From: Paludibacter sp.
GTDB lineage: Bacteria; Bacteroidota; Bacteroidia; Bacteroidales; Paludibacteraceae
Assembly: GCA_028692715.1 (NCBI GenBank)
Contig: JAQUWU010000002.1
Location: forward strand, 23,437 to 87,436
Direction of reading: 5' to 3'
DNA: 64,000 bases
Under the pieces are notes generated by a model that saw nothing but the letters and a program-made list of their open reading frames with translations, did not search any database and was not told the DNA's origin. Of this stretch, positions 2,361 to 58,186 are shown piece by piece (position 1 is the first letter of the stretch; every line of letters starts with the position of its first letter). Both the position numbers and the translations under genes were made by a program.

Positions 2361-4172
2361 CTACTTATATTGTTCTTTTAACTCCTCGTACCATTTTTTC
2401 ATAACGAAAAATGCTTTTTTCTTTTCTCCTTTATCTGATATCAACCCTTTACGATTAAAATCGTCCTGAATATCACGAAGTTGTCGACGAGGAGAAAGAA
2501 AATCTTTCAGAATCCAGGGTGTAGTTCCGGCAAGACCTGGCATTCGTTTCAGCATATTTATGTTGTGAACATATAGATCTTCTTGAAATTCTTCGGTAAA
2601 ACGTTCGGTTTTATCACCATGGAAGCCATAAAGTGCTCCACCTCCGAATTCGCTGACAATAACTGGTTTATCTGCCGAAAATGTCCAGTTTACACGATCG
2701 CATTTTTCGGGTAAGCCATCGTACCAACCAACATACTGATTGAAACTCATTACATCCATAACTTTGACTAACTCATCTTTTACGGTCATAAGTCCCGGTT
2801 TTACTTCATCCTTTTCCATGGCAGCGCCCACCAATCTTACCGGGTCAAGTTCACGGGTTTTGTTTGCTAGTCGTGTAAGAAAATTTAATCGGGCATCACT
2901 ATGTGGCGTTTCGTTTGCAATGGACCAGATAATGATATTACAACGGTTTTTATCACGTGTAATCATATCGGTCAATTGATTTTCTGCATTTTTGTAGGTT
3001 TCTGGGTTTTCCCATTGTATTGTCCAGTAAACCGGAATTTCAGACCAAACCATTAAACCCATGCGCTCTGCTTGACGCACCATTTGTTCGTTGTGAGGAT
3101 AATGTGCTAACCGAACAAAATTACAACCCATATCTTTTGCCCATTGTAATAAGGTAATATCTTCTTCTTTTGAGAAAACTCGTCCCTGACGGAAGGCGGC
3201 TTCTTCATGAATGCTGATTCCGCGGCAAAAAATAGGTTTCTCGTTTAACAATATTTGAGTTCCCTTTGTTTCAATGGTTCTCAATCCTATTTCATCATTA
3301 AGAATGTCATTGTCAAGAGCGATATTGAGCTTGTATAATTTTGGATTTTCAGGTGTCCAGTAAGTTGGTTTTACTTTACATTCAAAAGCAGCATATCCTT
3401 TTTCGTCAGTTGTAAGGGTTTGATTTATTTTTAATTCAGGGATGTTGATTTTTACGGTTTTATTTAATTGTTTCCCATCTAACTGAACCCATCCAGAAAG
3501 AGTGTTTTTTTCTCCCTTTTTAAGTTGCACGTAATAATCACGTACAAAGGTTACTGGTGTCTCAATTAAGGTTACCTGACGGGTAATTCCACCATAATTC
3601 CACCAATCAAAATTAACCGTTGGTACTGCATCAAAAGCTCTTTTGTTATCTACTTTTACAACCAATGAATTTTCACCGCTTTTGAGCAGGTTTGTTACTT
3701 CAAAATTGAATGGAGTAAAACCACCTATATGTTTTCCGATTTCTTTTCCATTTACAAAAACGATAGCTTCATAATTTACAGCTCCAAAACGAAGAAAAAC
3801 TCTTTTATCTTCTTTCGATTTGTACAGAAACCGATTTCGATACCATACTGTACCTTCATAATAATAAAGTTCTGGGCGTTGAGTGTTCCAGTCACCCGGC
3901 ACCATTAATGTTTTATCGGTAGAGAAGTTATATTCTTGTAACGCACTTTTATTAGTATTTACTTTGTCTTCTCCATACCCATTTTTCATAGGATTACGGC
4001 GATAATCGTAATAGCCGTTTTCAAATGGATCTATTATAGTTCGCCAAAGTCCATCTAACGAAATAACTTCGCGTGATTCAGCATTAATAATTTGTGGAGT
4101 GGTTTGTGCAGAAAAAAAAACCGGACTTGAAATTGCTAAAAACAAAAGAATGTGTTTTAAAAATCTTTGCAT
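2361..4172 (-). CDS. glycoside hydrolase family 2 protein (beta-galactosidase/beta-glucuronidase-like), secreted
   Basis: 603 aa. N-terminal signal peptide. GH2 sugar-binding and TIM-barrel signatures (WSIANE..., NETPH acid/base region). Confidence 0.8.
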   Translation of the reverse strand: MQRFLKHILLFLAISSPVFFSAQTTPQIINAESREVISLDGLWRTIIDPFENGYYDYRRNPMKNGYGEDKVNTNKSALQEYNFSTDKTLMVPGDWNTQRPELYYYEGTVWYRNRFLYKSKEDKRVFLRFGAVNYEAIVFVNGKEIGKHIGGFTPFNFEVTNLLKSGENSLVVKVDNKRAFDAVPTVNFDWWNYGGITRQVTLIETPVTFVRDYYVQLKKGEKNTLSGWVQLDGKQLNKTVKINIPELKINQTLTTDEKGYAAFECKVKPTYWTPENPKLYKLNIALDNDILNDEIGLRTIETKGTQILLNEKPIFCRGISIHEEAAFRQGRVFSKEEDITLLQWAKDMGCNFVRLAHYPHNEQMVRQAERMGLMVWSEIPVYWTIQWENPETYKNAENQLTDMITRDKNRCNIIIWSIANETPHSDARLNFLTRLANKTRELDPVRLVGAAMEKDEVKPGLMTVKDELVKVMDVMSFNQYVGWYDGLPEKCDRVNWTFSADKPVIVSEFGGGALYGFHGDKTERFTEEFQEDLYVHNINMLKRMPGLAGTTPWILKDFLSPRRQLRDIQDDFNRKGLISDKGEKKKAFFVMKKWYEELKEQYK

Positions 4173-37997: not shown

Positions 37998-38113
37998 CAA
38001 AACTAATTGATAATTGATAATTTATAATTAAAAACAGCGGTTTTTATATTATAAATTATGTCTGTAAGAAACATAATTATTAATTAAGTATTATCAATTT
38101 CTAATTAAAATTT

Positions 38114-38196: not shown

Positions 38197-38277
38197 CAAA
38201 ACGATGAGATGATGTGTTGATATGATGATTGTTTTAATTATCACATTTTCAAATTATCACATTATCACATCAAAATT

Positions 38278-38530: not shown

Positions 38531-39718
38531 ATGGCAAAAGAAAAATTTGACAGGTCAAAACTCCACGTTAACGTAGGTACCATTGGACACGTTGACCACG
38601 GTAAAACTACCTTGACCGCTGCAATTACAACTGTACTTGCAAAAAAAGGACTTTCTGAATTGCGTTCATTCGATTCTATCGATAATGCACCTGAAGAAAA
38701 AGAACGTGGTATTACTATTAACACTGCTCACGTAGAATATCAAACAGCTTTACGTCACTATGCACACGTTGACTGTCCGGGTCATGCTGACTACGTTAAG
38801 AACATGGTAACTGGTGCTGCTCAAATGGACGGTGCAATCATTGTAGTTGCTGCAACTGATGGTCCTATGCCACAAACACGCGAGCACATTCTTTTAGCTC
38901 GTCAGGTAAACGTTCCTCGTTTAGTTATCTTTATGAACAAATGTGATCAGGTAGATGACGAAGAAATGTTAGAATTGGTAGAAATGGAAATGCGTGAATT
39001 GCTTTCATTCTATGATTTTGATGGTGACAATACTCCTGTAATTCGCGGTTCTGCTCTTGGAGCATTGAACGGTGAACCTGAATGGGAAGATAAAGTAATG
39101 GAATTGATGGATGCTGTTGATAGCTGGATTTTATTACCAGAACGTGCTGTTGATAAACCATTCTTGATGCCGGTTGAAGATGTATTCTCTATCACTGGTC
39201 GTGGTACAGTTGCTACAGGTCGTATCGAAACAGGTAAGATCAAAACAGGTGAAGAAGTTCAAATCATTGGATTAGGTGCTGGTGCTATCAAATCTGTTGT
39301 AACAGGTGTTGAAATGTTCCGTAAAATTCTTGATGATGGACAAGCTGGTGATAACGTAGGTTTATTGCTTCGTGGTATTGATAAAGAACAAATCAAACGT
39401 GGTATGGTTATTACACACCCGGGAAAAGTTACACCTCATACTACATTCAAGGCAGCAGTTTATATCTTGAAAAAAGAAGAAGGTGGTCGTCATACTCCAT
39501 TCCATAACCGTTATCGTCCACAATTTTACATTCGTACATTGGATGTAACTGGTGAAATTACTTTGCCAGAAGGAACAGAAATGGTAATGCCAGGTGACAA
39601 CCTTGAATTAACTGTTACTTTAATCTATCCGGTAGCTTGTAACGTAGGTTTACGTTTCGCAATCCGTGAAGGTGGTCGTACAGTAGGTTCAGGACAGATT
39701 ACTGAATTGTTAGACTAA
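38531..39718 (+). CDS. tuf: translation elongation factor Tu
   Basis: 395 aa. [23 protein letters not shown]-domain motifs. Confidence 0.97.
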
Positions 39719-39724
39719 TCAATA

Positions 39725-39800
39725 GTAAACAAGTATACGAGTAAACGAGTAAACGGTATAAATACCTGCCTCGTTTACTTGTTAACTTTTTACTCGTTTA
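39725..39800 (+). terminator. complex tuf terminator (nested hairpins built from GTAAACGAG repeats, then A/T runs)
   Basis: AACAAGTATACGAGTAAACGAGTAAACGG...CCTCGTTTACTTGTT...TACTCGTTTACTT. Confidence 0.5.
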
Positions 39801-39815
39801 CTTAAAAAAAAATAC

Positions 39816-46766: not shown

Positions 46767-46851
46767 ATATATCAAAATTCCTTACGGGAACTTGAAATCT
46801 TTTATTCCAATTGTAAATTATCAATTGTAAATTGTAAATCAAAAAAAAGTT

Positions 46852-54417: not shown

Positions 54418-55491
54418 ATGGAACATGATTATTGTATAATAATGGCTGGTGGCGTTGGAAGTCGCTTTTGGCCATTTAGTCGGAACAATCGCCCCAAGCA
54501 ATTTCTTGACTTTTTTGGAACCGGCCGTTCGCTTTTACAAATGACATTTGATAGAATGCGTCACTTGGTACCTGCAGAAAATATATTGATAGTATCTAAT
54601 GTCATTTATAAGGATTTGATTTTGGAACAATTACCCGAAATTAAAGCTAATCAGGTACTTCTTGAACCAAATCGTAGAAATACAGCACCTTGTATTGCAT
54701 ATGCAGTGAATAGAATTAAGTCCATTACCAATAAAGCCAATATTATTGTTGCTCCATCGGATCATTTGATATTGAAAGAAGTTGACTTTTTGGAAACAAT
54801 TAAAATTGGAATCGATTTTGTCGAAAATAATGATAGTCTTTTGACGCTGGGTATTAAGCCAAGTAGACCGGAAACAGGATATGGTTATATTCAAATAGAT
54901 GAAGGTGATTCAGCTTTACGCAGAGTAAAAACCTTTACCGAGAAACCAAATGCCGAATTAGCACAAATTTTCTATGAAACGGGAGAATTCTTCTGGAATT
55001 CAGGCATTTTCCTATGGAATCTACAAACAATTGTTAAAGCTTTTGATGAACTTTTACCCGAAGTGGCAACTAAATTCAACAGCGGAAAAGAATTTTTCAA
55101 TACTGATAAAGAACAGGCTTTTGTCGATGATATGTATCAATCTTGTCCAAATATTTCCATCGATTACGGAATTATGGAAAAAGCATCGAATGTACATGTG
55201 TTGTGTTCCGATTTTGGTTGGACTGATTTGGGAACATGGGGCTCACTATACGAAATGTCGCCAAAAGATGAACATGAAAATGTAACCCTGAAATGTAAAA
55301 CCGTTTTTTACGAAAGTGAAAATAATATTGTGGCATTACCAAACCAGAAATTAGCGGTGATTCAGGATTTGAATGGCTATATTGTGGCCGAATCCGATAA
55401 TGTGTTATTGATTTGCAAATTGGAAGATGAACAAAAAATTCGCCAGTATGTGAATGATATTAATGTGAAGTTTGATGGGAAATACAGTTGA
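54418..55491 (+). CDS. manC: mannose-1-phosphate guanylyltransferase
   Basis: 357 aa. MAGGVGSRFWP nucleotidyl-transferase motif and a GDP-mannose pyrophosphorylase-like body. Confidence 0.85.
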   Translation: MEHDYCIIMAGGVGSRFWPFSRNNRPKQFLDFFGTGRSLLQMTFDRMRHLVPAENILIVSNVIYKDLILEQLPEIKANQVLLEPNRRNTAPCIAYAVNRIKSITNKANIIVAPSDHLILKEVDFLETIKIGIDFVENNDSLLTLGIKPSRPETGYGYIQIDEGDSALRRVKTFTEKPNAELAQIFYETGEFFWNSGIFLWNLQTIVKAFDELLPEVATKFNSGKEFFNTDKEQAFVDDMYQSCPNISIDYGIMEKASNVHVLCSDFGWTDLGTWGSLYEMSPKDEHENVTLKCKTVFYESENNIVALPNQKLAVIQDLNGYIVAESDNVLLICKLEDEQKIRQYVNDINVKFDGKYS

Positions 55492-55548
55492 CAGTTAACA
55501 GTTAACAGTTATCAGTTAACAGTTATCAGTTTACAGTAATCAGTGATT
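55486..55548 (+). repeat. tandem heptamer array, about 9 units of (A/T)CAGTTA, starting at the manC stop codon
   Basis: ACAGTTG ACAGTTA ACAGTTA ACAGTTA TCAGTTA ACAGTTA TCAGTTT ACAGTAA TCAGTGA. Confidence 0.85.
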
Positions 55549-55605
55549 CGTTTGTAAGTGGTCATTGTTTGGATGATCTGAATTGTTTCTATTATTGTTT
55601 AAAAA

Positions 55606-55613
55606 TATATTTG
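55606..55613 (+). promoter_or_regulatory. -7-like box TATATTTG immediately upstream of the four-helix-bundle mini-gene
   Basis: TAnnTTTG match only 5 nt before the ATG, implying a leaderless or very short-leader transcript if it is used. Confidence 0.25.
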
Positions 55614-55617
55614 TATT

Positions 55618-55977
55618 ATGATTGAAGGTAGCTTGGTTTATAAGAAGGCATATTCATTTGCAATAAGAATTGTGAAAGCGTATCAATTTCTTCAAACTGA
55701 GAAAAAGGAATTTGTAATTTCTAAACAGATTCTAAGATGTGGCACTTCAATAGGTTCAAACATTGCAGAAGCAAATGGTGGAATTTCAATGAGTGATTTT
55801 TCTGCAAAAATGAGTATCGCTTATAAGGAATGTTTGTAAACAAAATATTGGCTTTCACTTTTGAAAGATACAAATTACATTGAAGAAAATACTTATAAAA
55901 CGATGTATAACGATGCTGATGAAATTGCTAAAATGTTATTTTCAATTTTAAAATCGACTCGAATAAATAAAAAATAG
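55618..55977 (+). pseudogene. four-helix-bundle protein gene (PF05635, 23S rRNA intervening-sequence protein / Avd-like) interrupted by an in-frame TAA at 55837-55839
   Basis: MIEGSLVYKKAYSFAIRIVKAYQFLQTEKKEFVISKQILRCGTSIGSNIAEANGGISMSDFSAKMSIAYKECL*TKYWLSLLKDTNYIEENTYKTMYNDADEIAKMLFSILKSTRINKK. The SIGSNIAEA core and the E(T)-YWL..L block match the family. The stop sits where Glu (GAA) is expected. Confidence 0.6.
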
Positions 55978-55980
55978 AAT

Positions 55981-56062
55981 TAACAACTAATCACAGCTAA
56001 CTGCTAACTGTTAACTGTTAACTGCTAACTGCTAACTGCTAACTGCTAACTGCTAACTGATT
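55981..56062 (+). repeat. tandem heptamer array, 9-11 units of TG(C/T)TAAC. This is the reverse complement of the 55486-55548 array (GTTAACA/GTTAGCA).
   Basis: ...AGCTAAC TGCTAAC TGTTAAC TGTTAAC TGCTAAC TGCTAAC TGCTAAC TGCTAAC TGCTAAC TGATTAT. It ends 9 nt before the next ATG. Confidence 0.85.
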
Positions 56063-56071
56063 ATTGAAATT

Positions 56072-56344
56072 ATGGGATTTTTCAAATTATATAAACCACG
56101 CAAATACGACTACCGTTATATTTATTACGACTCCAAAAAGGAGGCGCAGAAGGATCGTGAAAAACGTTTAGCTGAAGAGGGTGAGAATGGGGCTGAATTT
56201 AGATCTACCATTAAAAGAGGAACTTTTCGGGCTGAAGCGGCAAAGAATAAGAGCTCACGTAGTCGTGAAATAGGAAAATCGAATATCCGATTAGTACTTA
56301 TAATATTCTTTTTGTTGCTGTTAGCCTATTACTTGTTGAAATAA
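56072..56344 (+). CDS. small hypothetical protein with basic N-terminal region and C-terminal transmembrane helix, immediately upstream of mutL
   Basis: 90 aa (MGFFKLYKPRKYDYRYIYYDSKKEAQKDREKR...RLVLIIFFLLLLAYYLLK). 9-nt gap to mutL. No family recognised. Confidence 0.4.
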   Translation: MGFFKLYKPRKYDYRYIYYDSKKEAQKDREKRLAEEGENGAEFRSTIKRGTFRAEAAKNKSSRSREIGKSNIRLVLIIFFLLLLAYYLLK

Positions 56345-56353
56345 AAAACTTAC

Positions 56354-58186
56354 ATGAGCGATATTATTCATTTGTTACCCGATTCGGTAGCCAATCAAAT
56401 AGCAGCCGGCGAGGTAATCCAACGTCCGGCTTCTGTTTTGAAAGAATTAGTTGAAAATGCTATTGATGCGGGAGCAACGAATATTAAAATAGTGATAAAG
56501 GATGCCGGTCGAACACTGATTCAAGTGATTGATAACGGAAAAGGAATGAGCGAAACGGATGCCCGAATGGCTTTCGAGCGTCATGCCACGTCAAAAATTT
56601 CCAGTGCCGACGACTTGTTCACCATTCGTACTATGGGTTTTCGTGGCGAAGCACTGGCTTCAATAGCTGCAGTGGCTCAGGTTGAACTTCGTACGCGAAG
56701 AGAAGATGACGAGCTTGGAGTTTTGATTGAAATTGCGGGAACGCGCGTGTTCAAGCAGGAATCTGTACAATGCGACAGTGGAACTTCATTTCAGGTGAAA
56801 AATTTATTCTTTAATGTGCCTGCACGTCGTCGTTTTCTGAAAAGTGATAATGTAGAGAAAGGTCATTTGCTGAATGAATTTTACCGGATTGTATTGGTTA
56901 ACACCGAAGTATCCTTTTCGTTTTATGATGGAGACGATGAAATTTTTCAACTTTCGGCTTCCAATATAAAAATACGAATAGAGAATATTTTTGGAAAAAA
57001 CAGCAAAAAACGCTGGCAACAACAGTTGCTTAATATCGAAACATCTACCAACCTGATTAATATAACAGGTTATGTGGGAAAACCTGAATTCGCTCAAAAA
57101 TCAGCTGTACAATATTTCTTTGTCAATGGGCGATATATGCGTCATCCTTATTTCCACAAGGCGGTTATGTTGGCTTATAGCCAAATGATTCAGGCAACGG
57201 AGAGTCCAAACTATTTCATTTATTTCGAAGTTGATCCGCAAACTATCGACATTAATATTCACCCTACAAAAACCGAGATTAAATTCGAAAACGAACAGGC
57301 AATTTGGTCTATTCTTTCGGCTGCTGTAAAAGAATCGTTAGGTAAATTTAATGTTGTTCCGTCCATTGATTTCGATCAGGAAGGTGCCATTGATATTCCT
57401 TCGAATGTAAATGTCGAGAATGTACGTCCTCCACAAACAAATTTTAATCCGAATTATAATCCATTTACAACGAGTTACAAAAGACCCACATTGGACTGGG
57501 AACAGTTGTATGGTGGGTTTGAAAAGAAAAAGGAAGAGCCTGATTCACCTTCTGAAGGACAACCGTTTCAGAGTTCAATGTCTATTGAAAGCAATGATCA
57601 GCAACAAACTTTCGAAAATATTGAATCACGTTCAGAGAATTTTCAGTTTAAAAACCGTTATATTCTTACTGGAATTAAATCGGGGATGTTAATGATTGAT
57701 CAACAGCGTGCTCACACCCGTGTTTTGTTCGATTTATTTATGATTCAAATGGAGAACAGAAAAGCGGTTTCTCAACAGATTCTTTTCCCGGAAACGCTTG
57801 AACTGACTCCCGACGATGCATTGATTTTCGAACAAATGATGCCCGATTTAAACCGACTGGGATTTGAATTTGAAAAGATGGAATTAAACTCCTATAGCGT
57901 AAAAGGAGTTTCGTCACATGTGGGAACAGCAAGTGTGGTGAATTTATTGCTGGAAATGCTTGATAAAACCAAAAATACCGCTGAAGATATATCCGCCAGT
58001 CTGCATGAAACAATTGCATTGACTCTTGCCGAAACGGCTTCTCTTAAATCGGGTCAACGACTTACTTCCGAAGAAATGAGTGACCTTATTGATCGACTTT
58101 TTGCGAGTGCTAACCATAATTTCACTCCGGATGGGAAGAAAATTATGACCATTTTTACCGGCGAAGAATTGGATAAAAGGTTTTAA
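56354..58186 (+). CDS. mutL: DNA mismatch repair protein MutL
   Basis: 610 aa. GHKL ATPase motifs (VKELVENAIDAGA, DNGKGM, GFRGEAL) and a C-terminal dimerisation domain. Confidence 0.95.
   Translation: MSDIIHLLPDSVANQIAAGEVIQRPASVLKELVENAIDAGATNIKIVIKDAGRTLIQVIDNGKGMSETDARMAFERHATSKISSADDLFTIRTMGFRGEALASIAAVAQVELRTRREDDELGVLIEIAGTRVFKQESVQCDSGTSFQVKNLFFNVPARRRFLKSDNVEKGHLLNEFYRIVLVNTEVSFSFYDGDDEIFQLSASNIKIRIENIFGKNSKKRWQQQLLNIETSTNLINITGYVGKPEFAQKSAVQYFFVNGRYMRHPYFHKAVMLAYSQMIQATESPNYFIYFEVDPQTIDINIHPTKTEIKFENEQAIWSILSAAVKESLGKFNVVPSIDFDQEGAIDIPSNVNVENVRPPQTNFNPNYNPFTTSYKRPTLDWEQLYGGFEKKKEEPDSPSEGQPFQSSMSIESNDQQQTFENIESRSENFQFKNRYILTGIKSGMLMIDQQRAHTRVLFDLFMIQMENRKAVSQQILFPETLELTPDDALIFEQMMPDLNRLGFEFEKMELNSYSVKGVSSHVGTASVVNLLLEMLDKTKNTAEDISASLHETIALTLAETASLKSGQRLTSEEMSDLIDRLFASANHNFTPDGKKIMTIFTGEELDKRF

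Follow-up and report, generated by a model that had tools for sequence, protein, structure and literature searches.

A PF05635 four-helix-bundle gene enclosed by inverted heptamer arrays between manC and mutL in Paludibacter sp.: a candidate intervening-sequence-type cassette outside rRNA

Described relatives of the cassette

The PF05635 family of four-helix-bundle proteins is named after open reading frames (ORFs) that lie inside intervening sequences (IVSs) of 23S rRNA. Here we describe a member of this family in Paludibacter sp. (GenBank assembly GCA_028692715.1, contig JAQUWU010000002.1, positions 23,437 to 87,436 of the forward strand), where a short gene between two inverted arrays of tandem heptamers forms a cassette downstream of manC. 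The 64,000 nucleotides that were analysed are called the window, and positions are counted from its first letter. For the S23p or IVS proteins, as the members of the family are also called, we know of no function apart from that of Avd, the accessory protein of diversity-generating retroelements (DGRs), which binds nucleic acid and reverse transcriptase (RT). To our knowledge, no catalytic motif has been recognized in PF05635 proteins either. They are very abundant, and structures have been solved (2RLD, 2GSC). Tandem heptamer repeats, the second component of the cassette, were described in cyanobacteria in the 1990s.

For ORF-bearing IVSs of 23S rRNA, an architecture of inverted repeat, S23p ORF and inverted repeat has been published, and such elements were called selfish and possibly mobile (PMC4990558). 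In Coxiella, the ORF is located in the loop of an inverted-repeat stem in which RNase III cleavage has been mapped, and two to three tandem GACAGAT heptamers, whose number varies between strains, directly precede it. The Coxiella ORF is under reductive evolution, and present or past mobility of the IVS has long been considered (PMC4990558). Experiments have shown RNase III to excise IVSs from precursor RNA only in Coxiella, Leptospira and Salmonella (PMC4990558).

The Paludibacter cassette shares several properties with the ORF-bearing IVSs of Coxiella, Leptospira, Brucella and Xanthomonas: the protein family, the position of the ORF in the loop of a stem of flanking inverted repeats and in sense orientation to the host transcript, and a sporadic distribution that looks like horizontal transfer. 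As in Coxiella, tandem heptamers adjoin an ORF that is decaying, and GACAGAT belongs to the same unit class as the heptamers of the cassette (CAGATGA phase). In contrast to the 23S IVSs, the cassette lies between manC and an ORF of 90 amino acids (orf90) and not in helix 9, 25 or 45 of 23S rRNA. Its arms consist of eight to nine heptamers, and of up to more than 20 at other loci, whereas the inverted repeats of 23S IVSs are short and unique. An earlier interpretation of the window, based on its letters only and referred to here as the sequence-only reading, had considered a mini-element with this gene to be without precedent. This claim has to be withdrawn, since the arrangement was already published for 23S IVSs, including tandem heptamers in Coxiella (PMC4990558).

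A second relative are the TAACTGA direct repeats (MacGregor 2015), which occupy about 170 sites in a Beggiatoaceae genome, occur also in Cyanobacteria and in five Bacteroidetes including Paludibacter propionicigenes, and mostly end a few nucleotides before start codons (PMC4679880). For their spread there was 'no mechanism evident', and a binding factor has been postulated (PMC4679880; bioRxiv 10.1101/2022.06.06.494920). In Nostoc, repeats of GAC(C/T)AAT, or CAATGAC in rotated phase, lie directly at start codons (bioRxiv 10.1101/2022.06.06.494920). TAACTGA is the reverse complement of the TCAGTTA unit of the cassette. The agreement extends to the intergenic location near a start codon, as the right arm, (TAACTG[C/T])9, ends 12 nt before the ATG of orf90 at 56072, and to a host range that includes Paludibacter. 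The cited studies, however, treated the arrays as stand-alone direct repeats and not as inverted pairs around a PF05635 gene, and the text of PMC4679880 contains no occurrence of 'intervening sequence', 'four helix' or 'S23'. A full-text search that combined the name or accession of the family with terms for heptamers or repeats, with subscription literature outside its range, returned the Coxiella paper and otherwise unrelated work only. As far as the searched literature shows, a general association of PF05635 genes with heptamer arms has not been described previously. The architecture of the ORF-bearing 23S IVS is therefore the known part of our observation, and an IVS-type cassette outside rRNA with heptamer-array arms is the new one.

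The third relative is Avd, which has a homologous four-helix-bundle fold and forms pentamers (PMC10053308). The enclosed protein resembles it as a homologue of this fold, with a match to the PDB entry 2RLD (E 1.3e-31), which was deposited with five chains. Nevertheless, the Avd profiles score far below their cutoffs (NF033474: 18.5 bits versus 80, E 0.0018; PF22296, bAvd: 16.8 versus 40). A DGR would also be expected to have an adjacent RT, but none is encoded among the ORFs of 50.5-64 kb, nor were template and variable repeats (TR/VR) noted nearby, for which no separate search was made.

The cassette in the window and among relatives

Tandem arrays were called by Tandem Repeats Finder (TRF) across the window, and the two arms of the cassette (Table 1) obtained the two highest scores of all 64 kb. 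The units of the left arm are ACAGTT(A/G) or TCAGTTA, which corresponds to CAGTTA(A/T) in the sense-strand phase. Those of the right arm are GCTAACT or GTTAACT, i.e. TAACTG(C/T), the reverse complement of CAGTTA(G/A). With at most one mismatch, CAGTTANCAGTTA is found 14 times in the window and every copy is located within the two arms (0.33 copies in shuffled sequences); likewise, CAGTTAN arrays are confined to these arms. The ungapped inverted-repeat score is 32, compared to a mean of 6.7 (standard deviation 1.1, maximum 11) for 389 random positions of the window taken with equal spacing. When the RNA from 55470 to 56080 is folded to its minimum free energy (-149 kcal/mol, z -4.1), the two arms pair with each other, with about one unpaired or mismatched position per heptamer, so that the gene, which is sense to manC, orf90 and mutL, lies in the loop of a stem.

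The inverted heptamer arrays around a PF05635 gene that the sequence-only reading had noticed are thus confirmed by TRF, by the 73-nt inverted repeat and by its score above the random maximum, whereas the limits proposed for them, 55486-55548 and 55981-56062, had to be corrected to those of Table 1. The left array does adjoin manC, but it does not start exactly at the stop codon, since the TGA falls inside its first units. On the right-hand side, mutL had been taken for the immediate neighbour, although orf90 intervenes.

Table 1. Positions of the cassette, its parts and its neighbours in the window
Feature	Position	Strand	Description
manC	54418-55491	+	mannose-1-phosphate guanylyltransferase (Pfam); stop TGA 55489-55491 within left array
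Cassette, whole	55484-56059		576 bp; between manC and 90-aa ORF
Left arm	55484-55544	+	period 7 (also 14, 21); ~8.7 units ACAGTTA (TRF)
Inverted-repeat halves	55485-55557 pairing with 55980-56052		73 nt; 81% complementary (repeat search)
Spacer, left arm to start codon	55545-55617	+	73 nt; holds TATATTTG at 55606-55613
PF05635/TIGR02436 four-helix-bundle gene	55618-55977	+	S23p/IVS-protein family, Avd-like; 119 codons, TAA at codon 74
Right-arm inner units, degenerate	55980-55995	+	TTAACAA CTAATCA CA; included in inverted-repeat arm
Right arm	55996-56059	+	period 7; 9.1 units GCTAACT, 96% match, TRF score 114
orf90 (90-aa ORF)	56072-56344	+	true right-hand neighbour, outside cassette, directly upstream of mutL
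mutL	56354-58186	+	downstream of orf90

The four-helix-bundle gene is the sole gene between the arms. When its internal TAA is read through, it matches PF05635 over residues 6-108 (E 8.6e-31, 106.8 bits, cutoff 33.8) and TIGR02436 of NCBIfam (E 1e-31, 109.4 bits, cutoff 24). No other Pfam or NCBIfam family exceeded its cutoff for the enclosed protein, and the cassette has no match to a defence system in PADLOC. The in-frame TAA at 55837-55839 aligns with Glu74, which is invariant in 24 homologues, so that the replacement of a conserved Glu codon, as first noticed from the sequence, holds and the window copy is not an intact ORF. A metagenome contig of the same species (L091, JGI) carries the same cassette with 99% identity and allows a comparison between strains. 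Here, codon 74 is GAA (Glu) and the ORF of 119 amino acids is intact, codons 58-59 encode Gln-Asn in place of Met-Ser, the right arm has eight units versus nine in the window, and a single base differs in the 73-nt spacer between left arm and ATG. Because of the intact ORF with GAA in L091 and the invariance of Glu74, the TAA is a very recent nonsense mutation at strain level (or an assembly error), and the gene of the window is a recent pseudogene. Read-through or recoding of the stop codon was considered and is ruled out by the GAA in L091 and the Glu in all homologues. The length of the arrays is polymorphic between strains in the manner of a microsatellite.

The cassette was detected in the window and in L091, while none of the 12 relatives with manC-(orf90)-mutL synteny (ManC identity 65-95%) has a PF05635 gene at this site. 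It is accessory and lineage-specific, and it takes the place of the manC-orf90 spacer, which is hypervariable among the syntenic relatives to the point that no alignable sequence is common to them. The view of a discrete cassette with presence/absence polymorphism was thereby borne out. The comparison of manC-mutL spacers, by which an empty site had been hoped for, did reveal cassette-free relatives but no clean empty site. As the whole spacer differs from that of every relative, neither the insertion boundaries nor a duplication can be defined. Three of the cassette-free spacers contain gene-less heptamer hairpins with z between -5.1 and -7.3, composed of CAGTTGA... units in L083, TAGTAGG.../AACTACC... 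in L085 and CAGTAAG... in L086. The closest cassette-free relative (L081, ManC 95%) has a wholly different spacer of 118 nt with a 9-mer array and AACTAnn heptamers. TAGCGAA heptamers are present in the spacer of L089, and that of L084 forms an ordinary terminator-like hairpin.

Hairpins directly after manC are also seen elsewhere. A gene-less hairpin of GAATTGA-class heptamers is conserved at this position in Bacteroidales-like metagenome contigs (L105, L107, L109, L110, L112, L164; e.g. L105, 1394-1460), some of them labelled as human gut; it reads AATTAAG AATTGAG AATTGAG ... CTCAATT CTCAATT, with z -6.8. Heptamer hairpins after manC are accordingly not restricted to Paludibacter.

Regarding the neighbours, a homology search showed the ManC protein of the window to be 100% identical to one from a metagenome-assembled genome of Paludibacter sp. 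The 3′ end of manC, ...AAATACAGTTGA, is kept in three cassette-free relatives (L081, L090 and, with one substitution, L087). This conserved end reads ACAGTTGA and is already similar to one heptamer unit. The product of orf90 is basic in its N-terminal part, has a C-terminal helix that is hydrophobic, and gave no match in Pfam, NCBIfam or PADLOC. By tblastn, orf90 was found in L081, L082, L084, L089 and L091; it is absent from L083, L085-L088 and L090, where mutL directly follows manC.

A TATATTTG box in the spacer upstream of the gene had been regarded as its own promoter. The sequence is present, but a promoter role is doubtful and the box was rejected as evidence of autonomous transcription: a mere 4 nt separate it from the ATG, a -33 TTTG is missing at a distance of 17-21 nt, and the box is absent upstream of the gene in the 80 homologous loci described below, among which no TAnnTTTG motif is conserved. 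A scan for sigma-70 sites yielded no more hits than in shuffled sequences. The nearest large ORF shares the strand of the gene in 61 of 76 loci on the upstream side and in 60 of 76 on the downstream side. At many homologous loci the upstream array extends to the ATG of the gene. A compact locus of a Paludibacter relative has the order peptidase stop codon, CAGTGAG/CAGTCAA units, gene, TAG-ATG and next gene, and the last codons of its gene run into ACTGCTA units. Given the lack of a convincing promoter and the common orientation with the neighbours, the gene is probably transcribed by read-through from manC.

Other short-repeat structures exist in the window. Gene-less hairpins with units that differ from the CAGTTAN of the cassette were observed between tRNA-Thr and tRNA-Tyr (37999-38113, TAATTGA heptamers, z -3.3), between tRNA-Tyr and tRNA-Gly (38198-38277, GATGATGTG-type units, z -2.8) and between tuf and tRNA-Trp (39716-39815, AGTAAACG 8-mers, z -5.7). 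In the rpoB-rpoC spacer, an (AATTGTA)4.4 array at 46809-46839 ends about 13 nt before the start of rpoC and has no hairpin partner (z 0.0). This array recalls the heptamers in RNA polymerase operon spacers of Beggiatoaceae (PMC4679880).

Period-7 arms around related genes

A scan with one genome per species delivered at least 589 confirmed relatives of the enclosed gene, of which the best 80 loci were surveyed. They are distributed over more than ten phyla, namely Bacteroidota, Cyanobacteria, Acidobacteriota, Calditrichota, Desulfobacterota, Gemmatimonadota, Verrucomicrobiota, Planctomycetota, Firmicutes, Proteobacteria and others. The density of arrays with a period of 7 or 14 is 1.5 per kb up to 300 nt from the gene and 0.064 per kb in the remainder of the same loci, an enrichment of about 23-fold, and other periods are essentially absent near the gene. 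Using a lenient array detector, arrays were found on both sides of the gene in 52 of the 80 loci, on one side in 23 and on neither side in 5, which means that they adjoin the gene in 75 loci. Random placements in the same loci resulted in 0.1% with both sides, 10% with one side and 90% with none, and for periods of 5, 6 and 8-11 at most one locus had both arms. The sequence-only reading had proposed to examine whether such arrays always come, in inverted pairs, together with PF05635 genes. The association is real, being limited to period 7 in addition to the counts above, whereas exclusivity is contradicted by the gene-less hairpins. Arrays of the same type at many gene-less loci had been named beforehand as an observation that would speak against the arrays as private ends of the element, and this idea is weakened by their presence.

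On the sense strand, the upstream arm follows the consensus [C/G]A[G/A/T]T[T/G/A]A-N and the downstream arm its reverse complement. Both arms have a common core of four nucleotides in 43 of the 52 two-armed loci. Within a core class, the arms of one locus further agree at position 5 (29 of 43, 21.5 when shuffled) and at position 7 (21 of 43, 15.6 when shuffled). Within the arrays, positions 2 and 4 are nearly invariant and positions 5 and 7 vary in 17-22% of the units; the choice of phase favoured positions 2 and 4, which inflates the base frequencies (A2/T4 in at least 95% of arrays) but not this contrast in variability.

The core class tracks protein identity and clade, with none of 2000 permutations being as strong, and crosses host phyla. 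GAATTAC/GAATTAA arms, for instance, accompany proteins of 52-57% identity in Betaproteobacteria, Desulfobulbia, Pirellulaceae, Pontiella and Flavobacterium, and CAAT arms are found at most Flavobacteriaceae loci, whose proteins are 58-62% identical. Different classes also coexist in one place: a metagenome-assembled genome of Planktothrix has two cassettes, with CAGTAAT/CAGTAAT and CAGTCAC/CAGTCAC arms, and in L052 two distant paralogues about 2 kb apart (534-833 and 3001-3354) have arms of the classes TTGGCnn/GCCAAnn and CAATTAA/GAATTAC. Heptamer class goes with the clade of the protein and with the single element, and not with the host.

Across Bacteroidota, Cyanobacteria, Thiotrichales and Desulfobacterota, the closest proteins share 70-79% identity, while for ManC the nearest other relatives of a metagenome scan reach about 60%. 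This argues for horizontal transfer of the cassette. As a possible vector, phages were considered and rejected, because only three homologues were detected in 2.9 million viral contigs (L183-L185, IMG/VR; 46-52% identity). Each of them is equipped with inverted arms of AGTTnnn-type heptamers; judged by eye from 160-nt flanks, L183 and L184 seem to be located between the same pair of neighbour genes. For intragenomic transposition there is no direct evidence, as the Paludibacter protein P0033 has a single context across 10 places and the Nodularia protein P0048 nearly always one, with the identical protein occurring once in a different context. Among the loci L001-L060 there is one tRNA gene, at a distance of about 1.7 kb from the four-helix-bundle gene.

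Some individual loci deserve a description. In L069 (895-1570), a tandem duplication comprises a full cassette gene and a 5′-truncated copy; behind each of them lies a right arm of ATTATTC/ATTACTA, nearly identical in both. On the chromosome of Nodularia spumigena (CP007203.2; L166, 2350-2900), (CAGTTAn)9, a loop and (TAACTGn) units run into the ATG of the gene, and after the gene (ACTGATA)4 runs into the ATG of an MNT/HepT toxin-antitoxin pair; TAACTGA-type units hence precede both start codons. A second cassette of the Paludibacter lineage (L174-L182; e.g. L174, 2449-2885) is highly compact and keeps its arrangement in 10 metagenomes. Its neighbours are genes for a peptidase M16 and a methyltransferase, and the last residues of its protein, NTANC, are encoded by the heptamers of the right arm.

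A possible mechanism and its alternatives

By analogy with the rRNA IVSs, we interpret the cassette as an IVS-type element outside rRNA that has probably spread horizontally and would ride on a read-through transcript in which its arms pair and RNase III cuts the stem; we assign a probability of roughly 0.55 to this interpretation. The read-through transcript of manC would carry the cassette, and its arms would form a stem of about 60-70 bp with approximately one mismatch per heptamer. RNase III could then cut this stem as it does in rRNA IVSs, which would release the RNA of the ORF and keep the host messages on both sides usable. We propose that insertions between co-directional genes or in rRNA helices are tolerated because such cleavage leaves the neighbours functional.

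How the cassette spreads is a matter of speculation. RecA-type or template-switch recombination might take place, in any register, between the arms of a cassette and resident heptamer hairpins, in which case gene-less hairpins would serve as landing pads and the same process would homogenise the arms. Quasipalindrome correction is an established process. Recombination between arrays would account for the lack of target duplications, for arms that vary in length and for their abutment on the stop and start codons of the neighbours. The sequence-only reading had thought of self-insertion, of an iteron function or of inversion. Nothing points to these, with no recombinase, transposase or RT among the ORFs of 50.5-64 kb and no target duplication or clean empty site.

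Several observations weigh against an IVS-type element. In the window, the variable position of the heptamer is mostly non-complementary (A/T in the left arm, C in the right arm), and pairing alone does not account for a CA[G/A]T core that is strongly conserved between phyla and points to sequence-specific recognition. The tests of core class against clade and of the agreement between arms are confounded by shared ancestry. Heptamer arrays and hairpins are far commoner without the gene, both at the orthologous site of relatives and at other loci, and for this reason the arms may be pre-existing features of the host and not parts of the element. The 23S sarcin-ricin motif was found in none of 164 loci, which include the 80 homologous ones, and none of these is situated in 23S rRNA; the link to true IVSs would run through protein homology and one published description. 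Syntenic relatives offered no clean empty site and no target-site duplication, and a second genomic copy of the cassette was not found, so that mobility of this particular copy is at most conjectural.

The best of the alternatives, which we regard as possible but with the odds against it, is compatible with the IVS-type interpretation. Here, the PF05635 protein, as a pentamer, would recognize the heptamers in RNA or single-stranded DNA, and the gene would be placed between its own sites for autoregulation or maintenance. The gene-less arrays, often just upstream of start codons, would then be targets in trans, and the protein may promote their spread. A REPtron is built in a comparable way, from a RAYT gene with inverted REP sequences on both sides, which also occur scattered over the genome. 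The analogy concerns the small gene bracketed by inverted short repeats that are also found many times without it; the cassette, however, encodes a PF05635 protein and not an HUH/Y1 transposase, and its repeats are tandem heptamers and not palindromic REPs. A cognate binder is consistent with the conserved core next to the varying positions 5 and 7 (the A2 and T4 values being inflated as mentioned), with a core class that follows the protein clade across phyla, such as GAATTAC arms with proteins 52-56% identical to the query, and with paralogues of one genome that differ in arm class. The nucleic acid and RT binding of the homologue Avd would fit as well. Moreover, Avd is a pentamer (PMC10053308), the closest homologues come from hosts (Beggiatoaceae relatives, Cyanobacteria, Bernardetia, Paludibacter) that match those published for the TAACTGA repeats (PMC4679880), and for these repeats a binding factor was postulated (PMC4679880; bioRxiv 10.1101/2022.06.06.494920). 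On the other hand, the ORF is dispensable and decays both here, by the TAA, and in Coxiella (PMC4990558), and co-inheritance of arms and gene can account for their co-variation.

We are slightly more hesitant about a wider version of this idea. PF05635 proteins and heptamer arrays would form one cross-phylum system, in which a toroidal pentamer binds, and possibly propagates, repeats of the TAACTGA type or of the short tandemly repeated repetitive (STRR) type. The arms would represent a clade-specific 'code' (CAGT, CAAT, GAAT, CATT and others), and the 23S IVS would be a special case.

It is improbable that the arms are an ordinary host hairpin, i.e. a terminator, an RNA-stability or translation-leader element or a microsatellite, with the gene in its loop by chance or permissiveness. 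Such an origin would agree with the gene-less heptamer hairpins at the orthologous site (L083, L085, L086) and after manC in gut Bacteroidales, with the other tandem-repeat hairpins in the tRNA and tuf spacers of the window, and with the heptamer-like 3′ end of manC. It does not account for the 23-fold enrichment of period 7 and the two-armed loci (52 of 80 versus 0.1% in random placements), for an arm class that follows protein clade and element rather than host, or for the restriction of CAGTTAN arrays to the cassette within the window.

We consider it unlikely that the cassette reflects chance adjacency, a switch by DNA inversion, a classical transposon or miniature inverted-repeat transposable element (MITE), or the remnant of a DGR. 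For an invertible, phase-variable segment recombining at the 60-80 bp arms, to which we give very little credit, one could quote the geometry of the inverted repeats, the polymorphic array length and the common use of invertible promoters by Bacteroidales. Yet no recombinase is encoded within 50.5-64 kb, the two independent contigs (window and L091) have the same orientation, the arms are only 81% complementary, and in about 80% of 76 loci the gene and its neighbours point the same way, a bias that frequent flipping would erode. Least credible is a transposable element or the Avd gene of a decayed DGR, in spite of the terminal inverted repeats, the patchy, horizontally transferred distribution and the weak Avd match, since transposase and RT are missing from the element and the ORFs of 50.5-64 kb, no target-site duplication as in insertion sequences or MITEs is definable, the arms vary by whole heptamers and not as fixed terminal repeats do, the Avd scores are sub-threshold and viral homologues are rare.

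In Paludibacter, the locus is an accessory insert that was acquired recently in a hypervariable spacer upstream of mutL and is already decaying. For the family, the IVS-type interpretation would link two puzzles that have been treated separately, S23p/IVS proteins without a known function and tandem heptamer repeats without a known way of spreading or binding partner. The rRNA IVSs would be reframed as one landing site of a far more widespread intergenic cassette. Since the gene is almost always accompanied by period-7 arrays, whose class tracks clade and element, binding of the repeats by the protein and processing by RNase III become cheaply testable.

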